The notes below the pieces were generated by a model. That model made no database searches and was not told the origin of the DNA. It saw only the letters and a program-made list of their open reading frames with translations. A stretch of 64,000 bases of DNA from Candidatus Saccharimonadota bacterium (lineage in GTDB: Bacteria > Patescibacteriota > Saccharimonadia > Saccharimonadales > JACDBH01), in NCBI GenBank assembly GCA_028289135.1, contig JAQGGW010000003.1, forward strand, positions 2,015 through 66,014, in the 5' to 3' direction. This document shows, piece after piece, positions 5,089-46,124 of this stretch. The first letter of the stretch is position 1; each line of letters opens with the position of its first letter. The position numbers and the translations under genes are program-made.

Positions 5089-6359
5089 CTAGGCAGCGGG
5101 AAGTCGGCCGCGAACTTAGTTATTTCGCTGTGCAGTCCGGCCAGCTTCTTATCGTCTTTATGGTTCTTGACTGCATCGTTGATCCAGTCGGCGACCATGA
5201 CCATGTGCTCTTCTTTCATGCCGCGGGTTGTCAGTGCTGGCGTGCCTAGACGAATGCCGCTTGGGTCAAATGGTGAGCGCGGGTCAAACGGCACAGTGTT
5301 TTTGTTGACGGTAATTCCAGCAAGGCCCAAAGCCTTTTCGCCCTCTTTGCCGCTGATGTTTTTGTTGTTAAGGTCAATTACCATCAAGTGGTTATCGGTG
5401 CCGCCAGTAACGATATTAAAGCCTCTCTGCAGCAGTTCGGCGGCCAGCTTTTTGGAATTTTTAACTATCTGTTTGCCATATTCTTTAAATTCTGGCTGGA
5501 GAGCTTCGCCAAGGGCAACGGCGATGGCAGCAGTCTGGTGGTTATGCGGCCCGCCCTGCAAACCCGGAATTACTGCACGGTCAATGAGTGAGGGAATGTT
5601 TTCGACAGTTCGCTCTGGTTTCTTTAAAGGGTTAGAAGGGTTCCCGTTGGCCAAAATCATCGCTCCCCGCGGACCACGCAGCGTCTTATGAGTTGTTGTC
5701 ATAATTACATCAACTATTCCTGCCGGACTTGGATGCTCCCCAGCAACAACCAATCCGCTAATGTGCGAAATGTCGGCCGCCAAAAAAGCACCTGATGCAT
5801 CGGCGATCTCGCGCATTTTTTTCCAATCAATAATGCGCGGGTAGGCCGTGGTGCCGCTCATAATTAGCTTTGGTTTGTGCTCCATTGCAAGCTGCATAAT
5901 TGCGTCGTAATCCATAAAGCCGTCTTTGTCGGTTGTATACTGCACAGAGTGGTAGTATGTGCCGCTAAAGTTCACTTTTAACCCATGCGTCATATGCCCG
6001 CCAAAATAAAGCGACATGCCCATGACAGTGTCGCCTGGGTCGACCAACGCAAAATATATGGCCTGGTTAGCCGGGCAGCCAGAGTGCGGCTGGACATTGG
6101 CAAAGCTTACGCCAAACAGTTCTTTGGCCAGGTCGCGCGCCAAATTTTCGACTTTGTCTACTACTTCACAGCCGCCATAGTAGCGCATACCAGGATAGCC
6201 TTCGGAATATTTGTCGGTTAAAATTGAGCCCGAGGCCTCACGGACCGCTACCGAAGAGTGGTTTTCGCTCGGAATCATTTCCAGCCCCTGGCTTTGGCGT
6301 GCCCGCTCTTCTTCGATAAGTTTCTTTATTTGTGCGGTAACATTTTTATCATTTGTCAT
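5085..6359 (-). CDS. glyA: serine hydroxymethyltransferase
   Basis: SENHSSVAVREASGS, YSEGYPGMRYYGG, and the PLP-lysine motif TTTHKTLRGPRG. 424 aa. Confidence 0.97.
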   Translation of the reverse strand: MTNDKNVTAQIKKLIEEERARQSQGLEMIPSENHSSVAVREASGSILTDKYSEGYPGMRYYGGCEVVDKVENLARDLAKELFGVSFANVQPHSGCPANQAIYFALVDPGDTVMGMSLYFGGHMTHGLKVNFSGTYYHSVQYTTDKDGFMDYDAIMQLAMEHKPKLIMSGTTAYPRIIDWKKMREIADASGAFLAADISHISGLVVAGEHPSPAGIVDVIMTTTHKTLRGPRGAMILANGNPSNPLKKPERTVENIPSLIDRAVIPGLQGGPHNHQTAAIAVALGEALQPEFKEYGKQIVKNSKKLAAELLQRGFNIVTGGTDNHLMVIDLNNKNISGKEGEKALGLAGITVNKNTVPFDPRSPFDPSGIRLGTPALTTRGMKEEHMVMVADWINDAVKNHKDDKKLAGLHSEITKFAADFPLPS

Positions 6360-6401
6360 ACTTTTACCCGCTCTTTCCTAGTTTAACGCCCAGTTATTGT
6401 A

Positions 6402-6523
6402 AGGGTTTCGTACTTTAGTGCAGTTTGGCCAAACAATCGAGCACCGGATTCGGAGTGTATACAGAAATACATGTAGAAACGGAGCGGAGATTTTTGGCCG
6501 AAATGTGCAAAGTACGGAAGCCT
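6402..6523. repeat. long imperfect hairpin element, copy 1 (homologous to 37884-38044)
   Basis: The arm at 6402-6430 pairs with 6496-6523, about 27 bp with bulges and G-U pairs. It shares TAGTGCAGTTTG, CGAG[C/T]ACC, AGCGGAGAT and AAATG[T/C]GCA with the second copy. Confidence 0.6.
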
Positions 6524-6641
6524 GCTCAGTTATGTTGCGTTTCATTAGATCATGGGTGTATTGTAGTTGATGTAACGCAAAAAATAAAAAAATCCGGCAA
6601 TATCGACAAAATATACCGTTCTTGATATAGTAAACAAGCTT

Positions 6642-8165
6642 ATGAATACAACCAGCGAGAAAATTGGTCACTTAATTTACCAAGTACGGCAAGAAAAAGG
6701 CCTAACCCAGGCTGAATTTGCCAAACGGCTGAACACATCGCAGTCGGCAGTTAACCGTATTGAACACGGGCACCAAAACCTTAGCATGGATATGCTAGGC
6801 CGGATTAGCGATGTTTTAAACAAGCAGATTATTAGCCTAAACACCAACGCCGTTTCACTCCGGATTGAAGGCGGCCACAAACTAAGCGGTGAGATTTCGG
6901 TTAAAACCAGCAAGAACGCTGCCGTTGGCCTGATCTGCGCTTCGCTACTTAACAAAGGCACGACCAAACTTAAGTCCGTTGCCCGCATCGAAGAAGTTAA
7001 CCGCCTGGTTGAAGTGCTTGAAAGCATTGGCGTAAAAGTCCGTTGGCTGCCCGGAAACGACCTGGAGATCAAACCGCCCGCCAAACTTAATCTTGAAAAT
7101 ATCAACGGTATAGCCGCACGCAAAACCCGCAGCGTTATCATGTTTGTCGGCGCGCTAATGCACGATTATAAAGAATTTAAGATCCCCTATGCCGGCGGCT
7201 GTGAACTTGGCAAACGAACGGTTTTGCCGCACATTTACGCGCTTGAAGAATTTGGAACGAACATCATCGCCAAAACCGGGCATTACAACATTACGTCCAA
7301 GCTCAAACTCCCAAAGCGCGATGTGGTTTTGTACGAATCCGGCGATACAACTACCGAAAACGCCTTGATGGCCGCGGCTGGATTTGAAGGCGAAACGGTT
7401 ATTAAAATGGCAAGCGCTAACTATGCAATCCAGGACATGTGTTTCTTCTTGCAAAAGCTCGGCGTCAAAATTGACGGCATCGGCACGACAACTTTGCGCG
7501 TCCGCGGCCAAAAGCGCATGAAGAAAAACATTAGCTACGCTCCAAGCGAAGACCCGGTTGAGGCCATGACTTTTATTGCGGCCGCGATTGCGACCGACTC
7601 AACGATTACTATCAAGCGCGCGCCGATTGACTTCTTAGAACTTGAACTTTTAAAGCTAGAAAAAATGGGACTGCGCTATGACACAAGCGAAAAATACAAG
7701 GCTGAAAATAATAAAACCGACCTGGTTGACCTAACTATCCACGAACACAATGGCAAGCTGATTGCGCCGGAAGACAAGCTCTATGGCCGCCCTTTCCCTG
7801 GCCTAAACATCGACAACTTACCGTATTTTGTGCCGATTGTAGCTGTTGCCAAAGGCCGCAGCATGATCCACGACTGGGTTTACGAAGACCGCGCGCTGAT
7901 GTTTACCGAAATGAAAAAGATTGGCGTTGACCTGGAGCTAGCCGACCCGCACCGGGTGTTTATTAACGGCCCAACCCGCTGGCGCGCCGCCGATTTAGTT
8001 TGCCCAAGCGGCATCCGCCCGGCAGTTATTATTTTAATCGGCATGCTGGCCGCAACCGGCACCTCCATGCTTCGCAATGTCTACACAATCAACCGCGGTT
8101 ATGAAGACCTGGCCGAGCGTTTGAATTCCCTTGGTGCGCACATCGGCATCGTTCACGAAGTATAA
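6642..8165 (+). CDS. murA: UDP-N-acetylglucosamine 1-carboxyvinyltransferase with N-terminal XRE-type HTH domain
   Basis: Residues 1-65 form an HTH (LTQAEFAKRLNTSQSAVNRIEHG). The rest is MurA/EPSP-synthase fold (GGHKLSGEISVKTSKNAA) with an active-site loop AGGCELGKRTVLPH that retains the Cys. Confidence 0.85.
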   Translation: MNTTSEKIGHLIYQVRQEKGLTQAEFAKRLNTSQSAVNRIEHGHQNLSMDMLGRISDVLNKQIISLNTNAVSLRIEGGHKLSGEISVKTSKNAAVGLICASLLNKGTTKLKSVARIEEVNRLVEVLESIGVKVRWLPGNDLEIKPPAKLNLENINGIAARKTRSVIMFVGALMHDYKEFKIPYAGGCELGKRTVLPHIYALEEFGTNIIAKTGHYNITSKLKLPKRDVVLYESGDTTTENALMAAAGFEGETVIKMASANYAIQDMCFFLQKLGVKIDGIGTTTLRVRGQKRMKKNISYAPSEDPVEAMTFIAAAIATDSTITIKRAPIDFLELELLKLEKMGLRYDTSEKYKAENNKTDLVDLTIHEHNGKLIAPEDKLYGRPFPGLNIDNLPYFVPIVAVAKGRSMIHDWVYEDRALMFTEMKKIGVDLELADPHRVFINGPTRWRAADLVCPSGIRPAVIILIGMLAATGTSMLRNVYTINRGYEDLAERLNSLGAHIGIVHEV

Positions 8166-10413: not shown

Positions 10414-10488
10414 GCGGGATTCGTATAGCGGCTAATATATAAGTTTTCCAAACTTAGGAGGAGAGTTCGATTCTCTCATCCCGCACCA
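10414..10488 (+). tRNA. tRNA-Gly (anticodon TCC)
   Basis: Acceptor GCGGGAT/ATCCCGC, anticodon loop TTTCCAA, T-loop TTCGATT, encoded CCA. Confidence 0.9.
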
Positions 10489-10494
10489 AGTCAC

Positions 10495-10571
10495 GCACCC
10501 GTAGCTCAGCTGGATAGAGCAATGGGCTTCTATCCCACAGGTCGGGGGTTCGAATCCCTCCGGGTGTACCA
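10495..10571 (+). tRNA. tRNA-Arg (anticodon TCT)
   Basis: Acceptor GCACCCG/CGGGTGT (G1-U72), anticodon loop CTTCTAT, T-arm GGGGG-TTCGAAT-CCCTC, encoded CCA. Confidence 0.88.
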
Positions 10572-13848: not shown

Positions 13849-14343
13849 ATGCCAATAAACAGCTGCCAATTCTGTAAAGCAAACTTCTATGCAAAACCAA
13901 GTCATATAAAAAAGGGCTGGGGCAAATATTGCTCTAAATTGTGCCAGTCTTCGTCAAAAAAGACAGGAAATATGATAGACTGTTTTATTTGCAAAAAGCC
14001 GACATATAAAAATCTAAGAGATCAGCAAAGGTCAGTTAGCAGCAAATTTTTCTGTTCAAAATCTTGCCAAACCATTTGGAGAAACACTCAGTATTCTGGA
14101 GATAAACACAGTAACTGGACGGGAGGTAAGTCTTCGTATAGAGTTGCACTACTACGCAGCAGCTTAAAACAAGCTTGCGGCAAGTGCACGATTACTGACA
14201 AGCGCGTTCTCGCTGTTCATCATAAAGATAAAAATAGATGGAATAATGACCTTTCTAATCTGATGTGGTTATGTCATAATTGTCACTATCTTGTTCACCA
14301 CGATAAGAGAGAGGCTGAAGGCTTTTTGGTGCCTGTAGCTTAG
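13849..14343 (+). CDS. HNH endonuclease with duplicated CxxC zinc-ribbon modules
   Basis: Motifs HHKDKNRWNN...NLMWLCHNCHYLVHH (HNH) plus CQFC...CSKLC and CFIC...CSKSC. ATG chosen at 13849, whereas the track ORF starts at a GTG at 13789. Visibly AT-rich. Confidence 0.75.
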   Translation: MPINSCQFCKANFYAKPSHIKKGWGKYCSKLCQSSSKKTGNMIDCFICKKPTYKNLRDQQRSVSSKFFCSKSCQTIWRNTQYSGDKHSNWTGGKSSYRVALLRSSLKQACGKCTITDKRVLAVHHKDKNRWNNDLSNLMWLCHNCHYLVHHDKREAEGFLVPVA

Positions 14344-14405
14344 CGGTTTAAAGCGTCGGTTTGTGGTACCGAAGATCGAGGGTTCAAATCCCTTTAGGCA
14401 CCCCA
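14328..14405 (+). tRNA. tRNA-His (anticodon GTG) with encoded G-1
   Basis: An extra 5' G opposite discriminator C73, acceptor GTGCCTG/TAGGCAC, anticodon loop TTGTGGT, encoded CCA. The 5' end overlaps the last 16 nt of the HNH ORF. Confidence 0.88.
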
Positions 14406-18671: not shown

Positions 18672-18748
18672 CGGGGTGTGGCGCAGCTGGCTAGCGCGGG
18701 CGGTTTGGGACCGTCAGGTCGTAGGTTCGAATCCTATCACCCCGACCA
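18672..18748 (+). tRNA. tRNA-Pro (anticodon TGG)
   Basis: Acceptor CGGGGTG/CACCCCG (C1-G72), anticodon loop TTTGGGA, T-loop TTCGAAT, encoded CCA. Confidence 0.9.
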
Positions 18749-19067: not shown

Positions 19068-20651
19068 ATGAGTACTAAAGCTAAAAAATCTACAACGCGG
19101 TCAACGCACGCTAAAACCATCGCCGCCATCAAGCGCAACCGCACGCGGCGCCTGGCTTCTTTGATTACCCGGTCGTATTATCTCCATAAGAAAAAACAAG
19201 ACGAACAGCTTTATGGCCTGATATGTGAAGAGTTTATGTCCCTTGGCGGCGTCTATGTAAAGTTTCTCCAGGGCGTCCTGCTCCGCTCGCAAATTATGCG
19301 CAAATGGCACAATCCAGAAAAGCTGAATATTTTTGAAAACCTCGACAGCGAACCGATCGACATTATGAAGTTTTTGCAAAACGAACTGCCAAAAGATAAG
19401 CTTTCACAAATTGCCATGATCCAGCCTATGCCTTTTGCCGCCGGAAGTTTTGGCCAGGTTTATTACGGCCAGCTGCGGACCGGCGAACCAATTATCGTAA
19501 AGGTGCTTAGGCCAATGGTTCGCGAGCTGCTTAAATATGACCTAAAGCTGCTCACAACGTTTTCAAAAACCTTTATGGTTAAGCTTAATAAAAACATGAA
19601 CATGCAGATTGGTGACGCGCTTAAAGACTTTAGTGCTGCGACCCTGCGCGAGACCGACTACAAACACGAAGCCGAGTTTGCTAACGAGCTGCATGAAGCC
19701 TACAAAGGCCACAACACGATTGTTATCCCAAAGACTTATCTAGATTTATGCACAAACAATATTATCGTCCAGGATTATGTTGATGGCATTTCGGTGGCGC
19801 AAATTATACGCATGCACGAACAAGGTGTTGACCCGGCCGTATACGTCAAAGAACAGCTTGGCTCCGACCTGATCACGCAGCTGCAAAATTTGGGGTATGA
19901 ATCAGTAATGTCAGTATTTAGGCTTCGCCGCATCCAGGGCGACCCGCATCCTGGCAACATACGCTTGATGCGCAACAACAAAGTCGGCATGATTGATTTT
20001 GGCATTAGCGCCCAGGCGCCAGAGGACAAAAGCGGATTGTTCGGCCTGTTCGAAAGTTATGACAAAGTCTTTAAAGGGTCTCAAACAGCAATTGGCCTGT
20101 TCGAACACAGCATGCGGTTTTTTGTGAGCGACCTATACCGTTCATTAAAACGCCTCGGCGACTACATCGGCAAAAACGACGACCGTGATTATGTAAAAGA
20201 CGTAAGTAAAATTGCCGGTGACGTTTTCCAGCAGGCAACCGGCAGCGACATTATTAATGCCGATTTTAAAAACGACTCAAGCGTGCTGGTGATTATTAAC
20301 AAAATGGTCAACAAGGGCAACCGTTTTGGCCTGGTCATGAAGCTTGAGGCCACTGAAATTTTGCGTGCCACCCAGACGTTTACGTCTATGCTCGGCAGCC
20401 TAGGCCTCTACGCAAAAGTTATGCCTTCGGTAATAGATCATTCCGTCAAAGACATCCGCCGGCTATACCCCGAAGTTATCCAAGACAGCAAAGAAACCGT
20501 TAGTATTGGCGACGCGATCGAAACTGTGGCCAACTGGCTAGAGCGTGTTGCCGCCCGCGACCCGATGCTTTTTAGGCAGCTTTCTGATAAAATTCGTTTT
20601 AATAAGGTTGTCCCCGCAGTGGAACCAGAAGAGGAAGTTCAAACATCATGA
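19068..20651 (+). CDS. ABC1/UbiB/AarF-family atypical protein kinase
   Basis: AAGSFGQVYYG...IIVKVLRP (nucleotide-binding loop plus Lys) and GDPHPGNIRL (catalytic loop). 527 aa. Confidence 0.85.
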   Translation: MSTKAKKSTTRSTHAKTIAAIKRNRTRRLASLITRSYYLHKKKQDEQLYGLICEEFMSLGGVYVKFLQGVLLRSQIMRKWHNPEKLNIFENLDSEPIDIMKFLQNELPKDKLSQIAMIQPMPFAAGSFGQVYYGQLRTGEPIIVKVLRPMVRELLKYDLKLLTTFSKTFMVKLNKNMNMQIGDALKDFSAATLRETDYKHEAEFANELHEAYKGHNTIVIPKTYLDLCTNNIIVQDYVDGISVAQIIRMHEQGVDPAVYVKEQLGSDLITQLQNLGYESVMSVFRLRRIQGDPHPGNIRLMRNNKVGMIDFGISAQAPEDKSGLFGLFESYDKVFKGSQTAIGLFEHSMRFFVSDLYRSLKRLGDYIGKNDDRDYVKDVSKIAGDVFQQATGSDIINADFKNDSSVLVIINKMVNKGNRFGLVMKLEATEILRATQTFTSMLGSLGLYAKVMPSVIDHSVKDIRRLYPEVIQDSKETVSIGDAIETVANWLERVAARDPMLFRQLSDKIRFNKVVPAVEPEEEVQTS

Positions 20652-20833: not shown

Positions 20834-20844
20834 ACACTTCTTGG

Positions 20845-20963
20845 GCCGACCTAAGCATATTCCATCTGAATGACACTCTCTACGGGGAGCCTAAGGGCTC
20901 GCCCGTGGCGTTTGGCTGGCCGAAGCGGCCACAGTCACCCAGACGAAATATGCTTAGGTCGGC
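20845..20963. other. 119-nt rod-like hairpin in a convergent intergenic region
   Basis: A perfect 17-bp closing stem GCCGACCTAAGCATATT / AATATGCTTAGGTCGGC. Inner pairings are CTG..TGAC/GTCA..CAG, GAGCC-TAAG-GGCTC and GGCCG-AAG-CGGCC. Confidence 0.6.
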
Positions 20964-21012
20964 GCGAACGTGTTTTTTAAGCCAACGTGACTCGCCTGCA
21001 TCTAAGTTTTAG

Positions 21013-21810
21013 CTAAATAATAATTCGGATTTGTTCGATTGATTTTGCGCGGTTTGTTTCGGGGTTGGTTTCGACTAAAACGGCATTAAACTGCATGGCG
21101 CCTTCTGTTTCCAGCACGTTACGGGTTTGGATCCCGTCGCGCCAGCGGGGAAGTACGCTTTCAAACTTTACTCCCAAGGAACTGTCCAAAGAGCCTACCA
21201 TGCCGACATCGGTTATGTGAGCCGTGCCGCCTTTTAACACCCGCGCATCGGCCGTTGGCACATGCCAATGATCGCCAATAACGGCCGTAACGCGGCCGTC
21301 CAGATAGTGGCCAATTACCACTTTTTCGCTGCTAAAATCACCATGAAAATTAACAATAACAGTGGTAAAGTCGCTTATGCTTAACATGTTAAGTATGCCG
21401 TCAACAGAGGCAAGGGGATTGTCGGTTGGCTTGTCAGCGTCTTTGCCTACAATACTGCCCAGCAGGCTGATGAGCAACACTTTGCCCTGGCTAGTTTCGG
21501 CAATCTTGTAGCGCTTCCCTGCTGTGCCGTCTGGATAGTTTGCCGGTCGTGTTACGGCGTGTTCCTCGCCCTCAAGCAGCTCATGGGTTTCGTCCAAGTG
21601 CATTGTCCAGTTGCCGCCGGTGAAGGCCTGCACCCCTGCCCTTTTGAGCCTTTCGTAATCAGCAACAGTTAGGCCTTTGCCTTCCGAAACATTCTCGGCC
21701 TGGGCAATAACAAAATCTACATCTTTTTCATTAACAAGTCCGGGCAAAACTTTTTCAACTGTTTCGATCCCTGCTTCGCCCATTACGTCGCCAATATATA
21801 AAATTCTCAT
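21013..21810 (-). CDS. ymdB: YmdB-type metallophosphoesterase (2',3'-cyclic-nucleotide phosphodiesterase family)
   Basis: MRILYIGDVMG...VIAQAENVSEGKGLT, GGNWTMH and NFHGD motifs. 265 aa. Confidence 0.85.
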   Translation of the reverse strand: MRILYIGDVMGEAGIETVEKVLPGLVNEKDVDFVIAQAENVSEGKGLTVADYERLKRAGVQAFTGGNWTMHLDETHELLEGEEHAVTRPANYPDGTAGKRYKIAETSQGKVLLISLLGSIVGKDADKPTDNPLASVDGILNMLSISDFTTVIVNFHGDFSSEKVVIGHYLDGRVTAVIGDHWHVPTADARVLKGGTAHITDVGMVGSLDSSLGVKFESVLPRWRDGIQTRNVLETEGAMQFNAVLVETNPETNRAKSIEQIRIII

Positions 21811-32266: not shown

Positions 32267-32456
32267 TTATGACCTATTATTTTTGCCCATTTCTTTGTTG
32301 CCAGCTCCAGTCCGAGATCGTGGCTTTTTCGCAGTGTAGCGGGCTTAGCCCGCTAGCAGGCGAAAAAGAGACCATGTCAGTCGTCGTATTATCAGATACG
32401 CCTCCTTTGCGGGCTTCGCAGGCACCTCGAACTGGACTAAAAATAATAAGTCATAA
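32267..32456. repeat. 190-nt structured element with 18-bp terminal inverted repeats between pilB and pilC
   Basis: TTATGACCTATTATTTTT (32267-32284) versus AAAAATAATAAGTCATAA (32439-32456), 17 of 18 complementary. Nested pairs are CCAGTCCGAG/CTCGAACTGG and TGGCTTTTTCGC/GCGAAAAAGAGACCA, with an apical palindrome TAGCGGGCTTAGCCCGCTA. Confidence 0.6.
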
Positions 32457-35195: not shown

Positions 35196-36266
35196 ATGAA
35201 CACTCAGAAACTGTTATATAAGGATAAACCACTCTTTGGTTTGGACATTGGTGCCAACAGTATTAAAGTCATGCAATTAACCCATGAGGGCAAGCAAATA
35301 AGCGTTAGCGGCTATGGGGTTATCCGCTTTGAAGAGACTGCTACCGAAAACGGAGCCATAACCGACTACGAAGGTCTTGCCAAAGCGATGCTGGAGCTTT
35401 TTGATAAACATATCAACGGCAAGATTACTACCCGCCGTGTAGCTGCCACCATTCCAGCTTCGAACGCCTATTCACGTGTTATGACCCTGCCCGCTTCGCT
35501 TTCCCGTAAAGAGCTGGATGAGGCTGTAAAGTTTGAAGCCGAGCAATATATTCCTATCCCGCTTGACGATCTTTATATCGACTATTCCTTGGGCACCACG
35601 ACGACAGACACGCGCGATGTCCTGGTGGTGGCCGTGCCTAAAAAAATTATTGATTCCTATACACGCTTCTTTGAACTTGTCGGCCTGGAAGTCTGTTCAA
35701 TAGAAACTACAATTTCCGCCTCCAGCCGCTTGATTGCAGCTACCGACCGTACCGCTCAAACGCCTAGCATTTTGATAGACCTGGGCTCGGTCTCTGTGGA
35801 TCTTAGTATTTATGACAAAATTTTGGTAGTAAACGGAACGGTTCCTGGCGGCGGCGATAACTTTTCGGAACAGATTAGAGACCGCCTGCAAGTCACATTG
35901 CCTGAAGCTAATACCATTAAGATTAACTACGGCCTCGGTAGAAGTAAAAAACAGGATGAGATCCGAGAAGCCCTGCGCGACCAGCTCGACCAGCTTGTCA
36001 AAGAAATCCGCCGGGTCGTGCGTTACTACGAAGAGCGTACCGAAGGAAAAAGTAGGATCGGCCAGATAATAACTATGGGCGGCGGCGCCAATATGCCAGG
36101 TTTGACAGACTTTTTAACCGATACTTTGCGCCTCCCAACCCGTATGTGTAACTTTTGGGGTAATTTTGACCTGCATAAGCTGCCTGTTCCAGATGAAGGC
36201 GACCGCTCAATATACGTAAGTGTGGCCGGCGCGGCGCTGCTTAATCCAAAGGAAATTTGGAAATGA
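35196..36266 (+). CDS. pilM: type IV pilus assembly protein PilM (actin-like ATPase fold)
   Basis: FGLDIGANSIKVMQL... and GGGANMPGL. 356 aa, directly upstream of pilN and pilO. Confidence 0.88.
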   Translation: MNTQKLLYKDKPLFGLDIGANSIKVMQLTHEGKQISVSGYGVIRFEETATENGAITDYEGLAKAMLELFDKHINGKITTRRVAATIPASNAYSRVMTLPASLSRKELDEAVKFEAEQYIPIPLDDLYIDYSLGTTTTDTRDVLVVAVPKKIIDSYTRFFELVGLEVCSIETTISASSRLIAATDRTAQTPSILIDLGSVSVDLSIYDKILVVNGTVPGGGDNFSEQIRDRLQVTLPEANTIKINYGLGRSKKQDEIREALRDQLDQLVKEIRRVVRYYEERTEGKSRIGQIITMGGGANMPGLTDFLTDTLRLPTRMCNFWGNFDLHKLPVPDEGDRSIYVSVAGAALLNPKEIWK

Positions 36267-36892
36267 GCACCCTAAACCTTATGCCGCCCGAGGCCAAGTC
36301 CTCAATTGCCTACGCCCGCCGCAACACACGCCTGGTACATTGGACCATTGGCTGTCTAGTCATAATTGTCGCTATGGCAGCAACTGTCGTCGTAGGCGGC
36401 TTTTATATCGACAACTCCAAGCAAAACCTTGCTTCTTCTATTAGTGCCACCCAAGACACCATCAAATCCCAAAAACTTGATAAGATCCAAGCTGAAGCAC
36501 AAAACCTTTCAGGCGGGGTCAAGCTTATCGTGCAAGTATTGTCTAAAGAAATCCAATTTTCAAAACTCCTCCAGCAGCTCGGCGGCCTGATGCCAACTGG
36601 AGCAACACTGGGGAGCGTACAGCTTTCCAACAAAATTAACGGCGCGCTTGACCTGACAGCAAACGCAGTCGACTACGAATCCGCTACCCAGGTGCAAGTA
36701 AACCTTCAGGATCCAAAAAATAACCTGTTTGATAAGGTCGACACCATCAGCGTTACCTGTAACGACGCTAATGCCGCCGCAAGCACAAGCTCCGTGGATT
36801 CACGCTACAAATGCCAGATAATTATCCGTGCCCTGTTTAAAGCCGACGCGGCTGTTACATTGCTAGCTAGCCCGGCAGGAGCTGCAAAATGA
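36263..36892 (+). CDS. pilN: type IV pilus assembly protein PilN
   Basis: ATG at 36263 overlaps the pilM stop (ATGA), with AAGGA 9 nt upstream. Single N-terminal TM helix and the LNLMPPE motif. The track start at 36257 is a TTG. Confidence 0.75.
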   Translation: MSTLNLMPPEAKSSIAYARRNTRLVHWTIGCLVIIVAMAATVVVGGFYIDNSKQNLASSISATQDTIKSQKLDKIQAEAQNLSGGVKLIVQVLSKEIQFSKLLQQLGGLMPTGATLGSVQLSNKINGALDLTANAVDYESATQVQVNLQDPKNNLFDKVDTISVTCNDANAAASTSSVDSRYKCQIIIRALFKADAAVTLLASPAGAAK

Positions 36893-37542
36893 GTCCAAAG
36901 CGCTTTTTCTTCGTAATGGTCGGCGTGTTTTCACTTAGTATTGTTGGTGGCGGGGCAATGCTTTATTTTGCTAATACAATGCTGCAAAAACGCTCAAGCA
37001 GTGTCGTCGACCTCAAACTGCAAAGCTCAGAAGTCGAGGCCCAGTTAACCGCATATCAAGCGGCCAAAAAAGACGTTCAGCAGTATTCGTATCTTAACGA
37101 CATTATTGCCAGCGCTTTACCGCAGGACAAAGACCAAGCCCGCACCGTACGTGAAATTTTCTTGTTAGCCAACCAGTCTGGCATTGCCATAAAATCCGTC
37201 CAGTTCCCAAGCTCATCACTAGGGGCGGTTGTTGCGCCTGTTGCCGGAGCTACACCTGCGGCCACTCCCGCAACCCCCGTAGCTGCTCCAACACCAGCCA
37301 TCACCCAGGCCAAGCCAGTTACCGGCTTAAACGGCGTATACTCGATAGAGACAATCGTAACGCCGTTTGCCGACGACAAGAACAACAAGGTTACCTATGC
37401 CCAGCTGATCAGCTTCCTGCAAAAGATCGAATCCAACCGCCGCGCCATGCAAGTAGCCAGCATCCAGCTTAACCCGCTCGGTCAAAACACTTCCGATTCC
37501 ATATCTTTCACGCTAACCCTTAATATTTTTATAAGGCCATAA
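36889..37542 (+). CDS. pilO: type IV pilus assembly protein PilO-like
   Basis: N-terminal TM helix, coiled coil, and an Ala/Pro/Thr linker. Assigned from its position after pilM and pilN, with a 4-nt overlap. Confidence 0.6.
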   Translation: MSPKRFFFVMVGVFSLSIVGGGAMLYFANTMLQKRSSSVVDLKLQSSEVEAQLTAYQAAKKDVQQYSYLNDIIASALPQDKDQARTVREIFLLANQSGIAIKSVQFPSSSLGAVVAPVAGATPAATPATPVAAPTPAITQAKPVTGLNGVYSIETIVTPFADDKNNKVTYAQLISFLQKIESNRRAMQVASIQLNPLGQNTSDSISFTLTLNIFIRP

Positions 37543-37554
37543 GGAGGGATAAAT

Positions 37555-37851
37555 ATGAAACTAGAACTTAAACCCCTACTCAAAAAACTCCAGCCATTTC
37601 TTAACTTTTTAAAGAAAGACTCGGTGGCAATATTTTTGGTTATTGTAGCGATTGTATTTGGCTTCTTAATCTGGCGGATCGGCAGCCTGGCCGGAGCCGA
37701 ACCAAGCCAGGACGCACTAGACGAAAGTTTGCTTAAAGTTGTCCGGCCTAAAATCGACCAAGACAGCATTGCCAAAATCAAAGCCCTGCAGGCGCAAAAC
37801 GTCGACATCCAGTCATATTTTGTTGACCGCAACAACCCATTCCAGGAATAA
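37555..37851 (+). CDS. hypothetical single-pass membrane protein, last gene of the pilus operon
   Basis: 98 aa with TM helix VAIFLVIVAIVFGFLIW. Begins 12 nt after pilO. No recognisable family. Confidence 0.5.
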   Translation: MKLELKPLLKKLQPFLNFLKKDSVAIFLVIVAIVFGFLIWRIGSLAGAEPSQDALDESLLKVVRPKIDQDSIAKIKALQAQNVDIQSYFVDRNNPFQE

Positions 37852-37883
37852 ATTCTATCTCCCGCATTAATGCATTGGTGAGC

Positions 37884-38044
37884 TAGGGATTACTTACAGT
37901 AGTGCAGTTTGTTCGAAAAGCGAGTACCGAAGCGGAGATGTACGGAATGGTATATTGAGCATCGGAACACACTCTACCCCACAAAGCAGGCTTTGCGGGG
38001 ACCCTTAGCTTTTCGGACAAAATGCGCACTGTATGTAAGCCCTA
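37884..38044. repeat. long imperfect hairpin element, copy 2 (homologous to 6402-6523)
   Basis: The arm starting at 37884 (TAGGGATTACTTACAGTAGTGCAGTTTGTTCGAAAAG) pairs with CTTTTCGGACAAAATGCGCACTGTATGTAAGCCCTA ending at 38044. Inner hairpin CCCCACAAAG-CAGG-CTTTGCGGGG. Fills a convergent intergenic gap. Confidence 0.6.
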
Positions 38045-38047
38045 CTT

Positions 38048-38680
38048 CTAAAAACCGCCGTGGGCAAGTTCTACGCGCTGCGCAGAACCAAGCCGGCCAA
38101 TCCGCTCAATTGCCCGCTCGTGGCAGTTTATAACCGTCCGGCGGTAAAAATCTGGGTTTGGCGTGTTTGGGAAGGTAAAGTTTTCTTCCTCGCCGGCCGT
38201 TTCAATCGTCATGGTGCCGTAGTTGAAAAATGTCTGCAAAATTCCTTTTTTTGTCACCGATACATCTTCGACGTTGATCATATTCAAATGCCCGACTTTA
38301 TGTGAAAACAAACCAAGCTGGCGCACTTCAATCACATTTTGATCTGTAATTAAAATCCGGCTTTGGTTGTAGATCCAGAGCGTAATAAAGGTGCCAACGG
38401 CAATTAGTCCGGCCATCAGAATAAATCCAAGCGTTACCATGACCTTTAGTTGCGAAGTAAAGCTAACATGTATACCTCTGGTAAGCGAAGGCAAAAACAG
38501 CGCAAAACCAAGCATCAGCAAAATAAGTATGGCACCTGTTAGAATAATAATCGCCCGCCCAAGCCAGTGGCGGCGGACATCGGCATAAAGTTGTTCTTTT
38601 TCGTCATCGGCCACCTCTGGATAAGCTTCCACTAATGGCCTCATTGGTTGTTGTTCAGGTTCCATGTATGTTTTTACCAT
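38048..38680 (-). CDS. membrane protein with bacterial PH (YdbS/YdbT, DUF304-like) domain
   Basis: Two TM helices followed by ITDQNVIEVRQLGLFSHKV...GTMTIETAG. 210 aa. Confidence 0.6.
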   Translation of the reverse strand: MVKTYMEPEQQPMRPLVEAYPEVADDEKEQLYADVRRHWLGRAIIILTGAILILLMLGFALFLPSLTRGIHVSFTSQLKVMVTLGFILMAGLIAVGTFITLWIYNQSRILITDQNVIEVRQLGLFSHKVGHLNMINVEDVSVTKKGILQTFFNYGTMTIETAGEEENFTFPNTPNPDFYRRTVINCHERAIERIGRLGSAQRVELAHGGF

Positions 38681-39720: not shown

Positions 39721-40605
39721 TTATGCCTCCATGCTCGCCGGATAATCAAGCGGCACTCTGTTTGAAACCACTTTTTGGTTTGGAAATTCTTTGGTCAATT
39801 TATCTATATCGTCCGGATCCATTTCCCAGCCAATAGAACCTAAGTTTTCTTTGAGGTGTTCTAAGCTAGTCGTTTTTGGGATGGTGATAACATTTTTCTG
39901 AGCCAGCACCCAGTTAAGTGCAACTTGGTAAGGCGTTTTATGATACTTTTCGGCCATTTTATGCAAGATTTCCGCATCTTCAAGCGCGCCTTTGGAAAGC
40001 GGGCCCCAAGCTACTATAAAAATATCATTTTCCTGGCAATATTCTAAAACGCCCTTTTCGACAATTTCGCGGTACTCAAGACTGTAATGCACTTGGTTGC
40101 AAACAATTTTATTCGTTGTGCATTCCTGTGCAGCCTTAAGGCGCGGTACGGTAAAGTTAGAAACGCCAATATGTTTTACTTTGCCATCGGCAACCAGTTT
40201 GTCCATGGCACGCATTGTTTCTTTTATATCAAGGCCTGGATCAGGAAAACGATGCAGAAGATAGAGGTCAAGGTATTCAGTGCCGAGTCGTTTAAGACTT
40301 TCCTCGCAAGAGTGGAGAACATTTTCATAACTTTGGTTAAAGCCTATTACCTTTGACGTAATAAAAAGTTTTGAACGATCATAGACCTTAATTGCTTCGG
40401 CAATTAGCTCTTCAGCGTGCCCTGCGCCGTACATTTCGGCGGTATCAATATGGGTTATCCCATGCTCAATAGCATTTTTTATTGCTTGGATTTGAGCCTC
40501 ATCTTTGCTATAGTCAGGCTCCATCCGCCCACCCATTTCCCAAGTTCCAAGGCCATATACCGGCAAACTAAAACCACTTTTAAGTGTCTTCAAAGGTATT
40601 TTCAT
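39721..40605 (-). CDS. aldo/keto reductase
   Basis: GLGTWEMGG, IDTAEMYG and LLHRFPD motifs. 294 aa. The stop abuts the ruvB ATG and the start overlaps the ruvA stop by 4 nt. Confidence 0.88.
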   Translation of the reverse strand: MKIPLKTLKSGFSLPVYGLGTWEMGGRMEPDYSKDEAQIQAIKNAIEHGITHIDTAEMYGAGHAEELIAEAIKVYDRSKLFITSKVIGFNQSYENVLHSCEESLKRLGTEYLDLYLLHRFPDPGLDIKETMRAMDKLVADGKVKHIGVSNFTVPRLKAAQECTTNKIVCNQVHYSLEYREIVEKGVLEYCQENDIFIVAWGPLSKGALEDAEILHKMAEKYHKTPYQVALNWVLAQKNVITIPKTTSLEHLKENLGSIGWEMDPDDIDKLTKEFPNQKVVSNRVPLDYPASMEA

Positions 40606-41183: not shown

Positions 41184-41261
41184 GTACGCTTATTATCCCA
41201 TACTTCTTACCTTGAGAGAAATTGCCTGCTCAAGCTAAAAGATTTTGTAATATTTCCAGTG

Positions 41262-42878: not shown

Positions 42879-43023
42879 AATTCTCCTTATGTGCGCGCCT
42901 TTGTATGCGGCATATTTTGGGCGGATAGCTCCGGGCTTGGCTGCTACGTACTTTCCTGTACGTTTCCGCCGAAGTCCTCGCTCTCCATCCCAAACTATGC
43001 TCGCCCACAAAACCGCTTAACAT

Positions 43024-46047: not shown

Positions 46048-46124
46048 TGGGCCCGTAGCTCAGCTGGTTAGAGCACCTGCCTTTTAAGCAGGGTGTCGTG
46101 AGTTCAAGTCTCACCGGGCCCTCC
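46048..46124 (+). tRNA. tRNA-Lys (anticodon TTT)
   Basis: Acceptor GGGCCCG/CGGGCCC, anticodon loop CTTTTAA, T-loop TTCAAGT, encoded CCA. Confidence 0.92.

Follow-up and report, generated by a model that had tools for sequence, protein, structure and literature searches.

We analysed a stretch of 64,000 nt (64 kb, referred to below as the window) from contig JAQGGW010000003.1 of a Candidatus Saccharimonadota bacterium, in which the end of a pilus operon on the plus strand faces the end of a minus-strand gene string, comEC-yebC-ruvC-ruvA-(AKR)-ruvB-bPH, where AKR denotes an aldo/keto reductase gene and bPH a gene for a bPH_2-domain membrane protein. The gap between the two convergent stop codons holds a 161-nt hairpin element at 37884-38044, which a first-pass annotation had described as copy 2 of a long-hairpin family filling the gap after the pilM-N-O operon, and this description holds. 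The results showed that the family is dispersed and polymorphic between relatives and that its young copies carry perfect terminal repeats and target duplications. We consider it probable that copy 2 is one of a family of small, non-coding mobile hairpin repeats similar to miniature inverted-repeat transposable elements (MITEs) and seemingly specific to Candidatus Saccharibacteria.

Copy 2 and its orthologous junctions

Copy 2 starts 33 nt past the TAA (37849-37851) of the last pilus-operon gene (37555-37851, 98 aa), and CTT alone separates its end at 38044 from the stop of the minus-strand gene at 38048-38680, as the 3-nt spacing given earlier had it; with this position in a convergent gap, a role in a 5' untranslated region stays excluded for this copy. 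The rod with its few bulges was borne out by sequence and fold, its arms at 37884-37921 and 38008-38044 being about 37 to 38 nt long apiece, and the internal hairpin CCCCACAAAG-CAGG-CTTTGCGGGG is present at 37977-38000. The terminal inverted repeats of this copy are imperfect, and the open reading frames (ORFs) within it are only spurious overlapping ones. Folded as plus-strand RNA, copy 2 reaches -74.7 kcal/mol (z -8.9, with none of 200 shuffles equal), and its complement -63.2 kcal/mol. Three sequence blocks, TAGTGCAGTTTG, CGAG.ACCG and AAATG.GCA, recur in the same order in the element at 6402-6523 (copy 1), and a single covariance model scores both copies (104.7 bits for copy 1 and 79.5 bits for copy 2), so that the kinship proposed in the first-pass annotation stands. 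In the covariance-model alignment copy 2 has a 56-nt insert in place of 21 consensus positions, which corresponds to the CCCC...GGGG hairpin region.

To place copy 2 among relatives, we compared five fetched loci (L038, L039, L001, L003 and L005) with the same convergent pilus/bPH-ruvB arrangement, whose bPH proteins are 79, 77, 74, 69 and 65% identical to that of the window; the window protein also shares 99% identity with one from a soil Candidatus Saccharibacteria metagenome-assembled genome (MAG). The gap between the pilus and bPH genes measures 6 nt in L038, 3 nt in L039, 6 nt in L001, 37 nt in L003 and 83 nt in L005, and the hairpin element is absent from this junction in all five, which answers in the negative the earlier question of whether orthologous pilus operons end with the same element. 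The three closest relatives (L001, L038 and L039) lack the family altogether in about 25 kb. With copy 2, about 190 nt were inserted at a junction that is 3 to 6 nt wide in these closest relatives. Since all five relatives manage without the element at junctions of 3 to 83 nt, it is a lineage insertion and appears dispensable for the pilus operon. No target duplication of copy 2 is recognisable against the empty sites of L001, L038 and L039. The 32-nt spacer to its left (37852-37883) holds a palindrome, GCATTAATGC, and has no counterpart in the relatives with gaps of 3 to 6 nt; it may have arrived with copy 2 or be left over from an earlier event.

Size and host range of the family

The pattern TAGTGCAGTTTG-N6-14-CGAGNACCG was scanned against the GTDB species genomes and matched 32 loci, 27 of which are titled Saccharibacteria, Saccharimonadales or Patescibacteria group, with 2 to 5 matches each in several genomes. 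True copies are present in 29 of the 32, while the remaining three, from unrelated phyla, match by chance; each true match is a rod of about 120 nt with the better fold on the pattern strand. A scan of Joint Genome Institute (JGI) metagenomes, samples that we take to be mostly from soil and rhizosphere, added 66 loci. Covariance models built from 22 and then from 42 copies found further diverged members, giving 104 distinct copies in total (86 to 207 nt long, median 123 nt), nearly all from Candidatus Saccharibacteria MAGs and soil metagenomes. The density in unbiased stretches (the window, L001, L003 and L005) is about one copy per 13 kb.

The pattern gave no match in viral contigs and BLAST no match to the family in plasmid and phage collections, and a phage or plasmid origin was set aside on these results. 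One contig binned as Verrucomicrobiia (L023, DATHNF010000001.1) carries two family copies in a Saccharibacteria-like gene context, and its assignment is probably a binning error. A full-text literature search found no description of dispersed repeats or non-coding RNAs of this kind in Saccharibacteria or other bacteria of the candidate phyla radiation (CPR), and Rfam has no family for the repeat, which is apparently undescribed so far.

Consensus structure and covariation

Read inward, the family consists of an outer stem, a pair of conserved sub-terminal boxes, a variable stem and a core. The outer stem, which is variable in sequence, corresponds to the terminal inverted repeats, whose termini (consensus AGGACTTTCGCA...TGCGAAAGTCCT) are moderately conserved across genomes. 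Box A (TAGTGCAGTTTG; as RNA, UAGUGCAGUUUG) and box B (CAAAATGTGCA; as RNA, CAAAAUGUGCA) pair with each other through an almost invariant tandem U.G/G.U and a G.A mismatch. In the core, a 16-nt motif, GAGCAYCGRAGCGSAG, stands on either side of an apical CGUAC-loop-GUACG hairpin, which gives the core a two-fold pseudo-symmetry. The two motif copies pair antiparallel into a duplex with two A.A mismatches and two identical asymmetric loops, and they differ from each other (C..A against U..G) at exactly the positions where the pairing requires it. Some copies have extra hairpins in the core, which differ between copies and lie on either side of the apical hairpin. A kink-turn reading of the GSAG/YGA loops was rejected, as it fits only some of the copies.

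The pairing scheme is strongly supported by covariation. In the alignment of 42 copies, 94.6% of the cells hold standard pairs and changes on both sides occur in 33 of 35 pairs, with a covariation score of 0.564 in comparison to at most 0.124 when the partners were slid, and none of 500 shuffles reached the observed values. All nine modelled pairs of the outer stem P1 show double changes across the family. This architecture is found in 104 distinct copies and covaries strongly, which excludes a chance origin of copy 2. The fold is better on the model strand in 103 of the 104 copies (mean -60.3 kcal/mol versus -45.4 kcal/mol), and G.U pairs outnumber A.C pairs by 179 to 33; many of the wobble pairs are inherited by descent, so this strand asymmetry is not a set of independent events, and the G.U excess is weakened as a proof of selection at the RNA level.

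Evidence for mobility

Signs of transposition come from the JTS-RE396 genome, in which copies on different contigs are 93 to 98% identical up to the base of the hairpin, beyond which their flanks are unrelated. The terminal inverted repeats are a perfect 16 bp in one of these copies (L011; CAGGTATTACGCGTTT...AAACGCGTAATACCTG) and match at 15 of 16 bp in two others (L022 and L017), and direct repeats abut the ends of four: CACTT (L011), GTTCA (L017), GAACAT (L022) and TTTACA (L033). In another genome TCAAC abuts both ends of the L031 copy. These duplications have no sequence in common. With an automated test on the flanks of 44 copies, three matches of 5 bp or more were obtained, which exceeds chance (a null expectation of about 0.4% per copy). 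A possible AGGTAT duplication at L051/L044 was set aside, since it looks like an end of the element and could have been left by another copy. In L020 (601-917) a relative with long arms has inserted into one end of a second copy, and in L049 (3041-3287) two family copies stand in tandem, 5 nt apart.

Copies shared between lineages score 27 to 83 bits in comparison to the typical 95 to 120 bits, as expected from the decay of old insertions; examples are the copies between comEC and yebC (window, L003 and weakly L005) and between pilB and pilC (window and L003). The first-pass annotation had named, as the finding that would tell against its own proposal, a demonstration that copy 2 is one of many mobile copies with target duplications; this is what was found for the family, while no duplication is visible for copy 2 itself.

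Orientation and genomic context

The copies show a strong bias in orientation. By rough ORF calls, on which all the orientation counts rest, 43 copies between co-directional genes are antisense and 12 are sense (p 3e-5); for copies whose two neighbours lie no more than 300 nt away, the numbers are 33 and 6, and with orthologous sites collapsed they are 27 and 7 sites. The 3' end of the element lies -3 to +7 nt from the stop of an opposite-strand gene in 27 of 33 antisense copies and in 8 of 12 convergent copies, a rule that copy 2 follows relative to the bPH gene. Among the genes abutted in this way are atpE, rpsO, rpsR, rpsA, infB, pnp, dnaN, pyrH and pilB. At atpE, a copy stands directly after the stop codon in at least seven loci (L021, L029, L036, L043, L071, L074 and L098), always antisense, and these copies form at least two subgroups whose stems differ throughout, the outcome either of repeated insertion at one site or of long retention with compensatory change.

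Near-palindromic arms cannot produce an orientation bias, which therefore points to an effect on the single strand. Most simply, the strand with the more stable fold and the purine loops would do harm within a co-transcribed unit, as the rarity of sense copies between co-transcribed genes also suggests. The closeness to stop codons is expected, because tolerated insertions in very short spacers must keep the ribosome-binding site of the next gene.

Weighing of the interpretations

Several known elements were considered for the family and set aside. A terminator scan finds no intrinsic terminator at copy 2, and across the family no U-tract or T-run follows the hairpin on either strand; intrinsic terminators are short GC-rich hairpins with a U-tract directly after them. 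No promoter of its own was found at a fixed distance from the copies. Integron attC sites have RYYYAAC/GTTRRRY core sites, cassette arrays and a neighbouring integrase; the family has no core sites or cassette context, no integrase was found among the window ORFs searched, its termini read AGGAC.../...GTCCT, and its neighbours are housekeeping genes. A DNA-uptake sequence was also rejected, box A being found in the window only inside the elements.

The MITE-like interpretation, which we hold to be the probable one, rests on copies that are shorter than 300 bp, non-coding and bounded by terminal inverted repeats and target duplications, and that are dispersed and polymorphic. The copies would be moved in trans by an enzyme encoded elsewhere. 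Target duplications suggest staggered cuts, and from the strict strand asymmetry of the pairing it would seem that one of the strands has a role in single-stranded form. Copy 2 itself is probably read through from both convergent operons and probably acts as a passive, very stable 3'-end hairpin, either as a barrier to exonucleases or read-through or as an RNase III substrate. Several observations weigh against this interpretation. The window has 76 ORFs of 60 aa or more, and a Pfam search of about 65 of them gave no transposase, reverse transcriptase or integrase; nor did any of these enzymes turn up in the ORFs next to the young JTS-RE396 copies. The fetched loci, about 750 kb in all, showed no orphan ends or boxes and no repeated segments of insertion-sequence size. 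Target duplications, 5 to 7 bp long, are seen in only about five young copies. Between genomes, the outer stems are more variable than the interior, whereas in a typical MITE it is the terminal repeats that are conserved. Finally, some sites (atpE, infB, pilB-pilC and comEC-yebC) are occupied in several genomes with compensatory changes, which points to retention beyond selfish spread. The conserved interior and the sites shared across genomes do not fit a plain MITE, and these two misfits leave room for a host-recruited role of the REP (repetitive extragenic palindromic) type or for a more unusual mechanism.

Such a host-domesticated RNA element, comparable to REP sequences and bacterial interspersed mosaic elements (BIMEs), would form hairpins after stop codons that protect the upstream mRNA, tune operon expression, or process or terminate transcripts, and copy 2 would serve as a 3'-end structure in both directions, for the pilus operon and for the convergent comEC-ruv-bPH operon. 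We regard it as rather unlikely. The abutment of stop codons, the constant orientation at the filled atpE sites, the other sites shared between genomes and the compensatory changes between copies at the same site all speak for it, and many of the abutted genes (atpE, rpsO, rpsR, rpsA, infB, pnp and dnaN) are highly expressed housekeeping genes. However, the abutment is expected for insertions tolerated in very short spacers, the five relatives do with 3 to 83 nt at the junction and the closest three lack the family over about 25 kb, the mRNA of the neighbours mostly carries the less stable complement with its C.A mismatches, and the U-tract is missing on both strands. If the copies were instead stand-alone genes for structured small RNAs, that is, paralogues transcribed on the well-pairing strand whose symmetric, purine-rich core binds a dimeric protein, the strong covariation, the invariant tandem wobble, the purine-rich internal loops (GAGCA, GSAG) conserved on one strand only and the core-repeat differences (C..A against U..G) that are exactly those the pairing needs would be accounted for. 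This reading is less probable still: there is no promoter at a fixed distance, the 5' spacers shrink to 5 to 21 nt before the start codon of the neighbour, most copies are antisense to the sole obvious local transcription, and the target duplications, the nesting, the near-identical copies in unrelated flanks and the presence/absence differences bespeak transposition. The likeness to 6S RNA, which the first-pass annotation had offered loosely for size and rod shape, did not survive. 6S RNA has a large central bubble between long irregular helices that mimics an open promoter; it binds RNA polymerase holoenzyme and templates a product RNA, and each genome has one or two 6S genes in a fixed place. 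The search with the 6S (RF00013) and other covariance models that had been proposed earlier was run: Rfam 6S has no match over the whole window at the gathering score, and neither 6S nor any other Rfam model matches copy 2, copy 1 or high-scoring relatives even at E<=10. The family consensus and the single folds are made up of uninterrupted helices, in which the internal loops are small and symmetric, and of an apical hairpin, and have no large central bubble; there are four copies in 64 kb, and the orthologous site is empty in five relatives. Only the overall length and the ends paired into a rod speak for 6S RNA in this hairpin family, which is multi-copy and insertion-polymorphic, and an identity with 6S or another known housekeeping RNA is extremely improbable, being refuted by the covariance-model and copy-number tests.

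A derivative of a single-stranded DNA transposon (REPIN/RAYT or IS200/IS605 type), in which a Y1 (HUH) transposase recognises one folded strand, would explain the strict strand asymmetry with G.T-compatible pairs on one strand and an outer stem whose structure is conserved more than its sequence, and relative L005 does have a Y1_Tnp gene. To our knowledge, this class makes no target duplications, whereas duplications of 5 to 6 bp are seen here; the alternating orientation of window copies within 10 kb of each other does not fit the lagging-strand rule, no Y1 transposase occurs among the window ORFs searched, the short GC-rich REP form is missing, and the L005 gene is not flanked by copies. We judge this origin very unlikely. 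That gene, of the IS200 type, lies between ruvC and ruvA (7066-7566, minus strand), is the sole Y1_Tnp gene seen and is not next to any copy, and a RAYT/IS200 link was rejected. A broader combination would be a structured single-stranded element, RNA or DNA, whose two-fold symmetric, purine-rich core binds a dimeric protein and whose spread takes place in the single-stranded state, some copies (e.g. that after atpE) perhaps having been recruited as orientation-specific post-stop signals; the variable duplications of 5 to 7 bp, the lack of a nearby transposase and the variable termini around a fixed interior would fit it, and we rate it as a minor, improbable alternative to the MITE-like interpretation.

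Other copies and features of the window

The covariance model finds four family copies in the window (Table 1). Copy 1, close to the family consensus, folds at -56.6 kcal/mol in comparison to -36.9 kcal/mol for its complement; a promoter-like site (6603-6631) lies downstream of it, and copy 1 is therefore probably outside the murA leader. The MurA protein (EPSP_synthase fold, 6642-8165, plus strand) carries an N-terminal HTH_3 domain. At the syntenic spot of copy 3, L003 has a copy (2228-2352) and L005 only a weak match of 27.6 bits (5272-5427), and in L001 and L039 comEC and yebC overlap with no copy there. Copy 4 has an orthologue in L003 (11413-11535).

Table 1. Coordinates of the junction genes, the parts of copy 2, and the other family copies and tRNA genes of the window
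Feature	Position	Strand	Basis
pilM, pilN-like, 217-aa and 98-aa genes (end of pilus operon)	35196..37851	+	Pfam PilM_2, PilN; synteny in L001, L003, L005
bPH_2-domain membrane protein gene, last of the comEC-yebC-ruvC-ruvA-(AKR)-ruvB-bPH string	38048..38680	-	Pfam
Copy 2, whole hairpin repeat	37884..38044	+ (better-folding strand)	fold; covariance model, 79.5 bits at 37885-38043
Outer stem P1, 5' arm (left terminal inverted repeat) TAGGGATTACTTACAG	37884..37899	+	pairs with 38029-38044
Conserved box A TAGTGCAGTTTG	37900..37911	+	near-invariant in family alignment; pairs with box B
Stem P3, 5' arm GTTCGAAAAGC, sequence-variable, covarying	37911..37921	+	fold and covariation
Core, 5' copy of the 16-nt motif GAGCAYCGRAGCGSAG, here CGAGTACCGAAGCGGAG	37921..37937	+	family alignment
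Apical hairpin P5, ATGTAC-GGAATG-GTATAT (family consensus CGUAC-loop-GUACG)	37938..37955	+	fold and alignment
Core, 3' copy of the motif GAGCAYCGRAGCGSAG, truncated: TGAGCATCGGAAC	37956..37968	+	alignment, covariance model
Copy-specific extra hairpin CCCCACAAAGCAGGCTTTGCGGGG, insertion versus family consensus	37977..38000	+	covariance-model alignment
Stem P3, 3' arm GCTTTTCGGAC	38008..38018	+	fold and covariation
Conserved box B CAAAATGCGCA	38018..38028	+	family alignment
Outer stem P1, 3' arm (right terminal inverted repeat) CTGTATGTAAGCCCTA	38029..38044	+	fold
Copy 1, near family consensus, divergent gap glyA (SHMT) / HTH-MurA gene	6401..6524	+	covariance model, 104.7 bits
Copy 3, sense, comEC-yebC spacer	42894..43017	-	covariance model, 83.2 bits
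Copy 4, diverged, 76-nt apical insertion, fills whole pilB-pilC gap, antisense	32269..32454	-	covariance model, 53 bits
tRNA genes	131-204, 1603-1676, 10414-10568, 14329-14402, 18672-18745, 46049-46122	+	Rfam

Two further hairpins were noted. One at 20836-20972 (minus strand), in the gap between genes 19068-20651 and 21013-21810, is very stable (-79.3 kcal/mol, z -8.9) and consists of a roughly 30-bp stem and two small internal hairpins; the family model gives it only 14 bits, and it may be distantly related to the family or represent a second hairpin family. The other, at 41189-41257 (minus strand) in the ruvA-ruvC spacer, is short and AT-rich with a weak model match (15 bits). The seven tRNA genes, all on the plus strand, are the sole Rfam matches in the window. 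The AKR gene (39721-40605, minus strand) stands between ruvA and ruvB, at a junction where ruvA is directly followed by ruvB in L001, L003 and L039 and where L005 has a different ORF of 207 aa, and this junction therefore seems to be insertion-tolerant.

Comparison with known repeats and implications

Among known repeats the closest analogue appears to be bcr1, followed by ERIC and Correia. The bcr1 element of the Bacillus cereus group is about 155 bp long with 5-bp direct repeats, is transcribed, and shows compensatory changes that keep its RNA structure, a non-conserved distribution and no obvious cognate transposase (PMC3184786). Set beside this description, the family resembles bcr1 in being about 120 to 160 bp long, non-coding and dispersed, with a distribution not conserved among relatives, direct repeats, compensatory changes and no obvious cognate transposase. 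It differs in belonging to another phylum and in forming a single rod with a symmetric core, whereas bcr1 is a cruciform of two independent stem-loops; the antisense bias and the stop abutment are findings for the Saccharibacteria family and do not come from the bcr1 literature. ERIC and Correia/NEMIS elements are imperfect palindromes that form long hairpins with terminal repeats and target duplications and can be co-transcribed with their neighbours (PMC3184786). Like these elements of Enterobacteriaceae and Neisseria, respectively, the family has many intergenic copies of 100 to 160 bp with long hairpins, terminal inverted repeats and target duplications. ERIC and Correia duplicate the dinucleotide TA, in contrast to the 5 to 6 bp without shared sequence that are duplicated here, and the termini of the Saccharibacteria family vary widely between genomes around a conserved interior. 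Correia elements also carry integration host factor (IHF) sites and promoters, while no fixed-position promoter was found and no IHF site was identified in the present family. With REP, BIME and REPIN sequences it shares intergenic palindromes after stop codons within operons, long persistence and possible effects on mRNA 3' ends. REP units are 20 to 40 nt long and GC-rich, often form inverted doublets, flank a single-copy Y1 transposase gene and are moved by RAYT Y1 transposases without target duplication, unlike the Saccharibacteria unit of about 120 nt, which has target duplications and no associated RAYT.

The genomes of Saccharibacteria and other CPR bacteria are very small and densely packed. 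Here a hairpin repeat occupies entire intergenic spacers and is found behind the stops of core genes (atpE, ribosomal protein genes, infB, pnp and pil genes). It contributes to genome plasticity, causes contig breaks in MAGs and is likely to modify the mRNA ends of operons. Its covariation resembles that of a true RNA, so that non-coding RNA gene finders can be misled by it, and the covariance model built here can be used to annotate or mask the family. The orientation bias, in turn, offers a testable handle on the interplay of such elements with transcription in minimal genomes.

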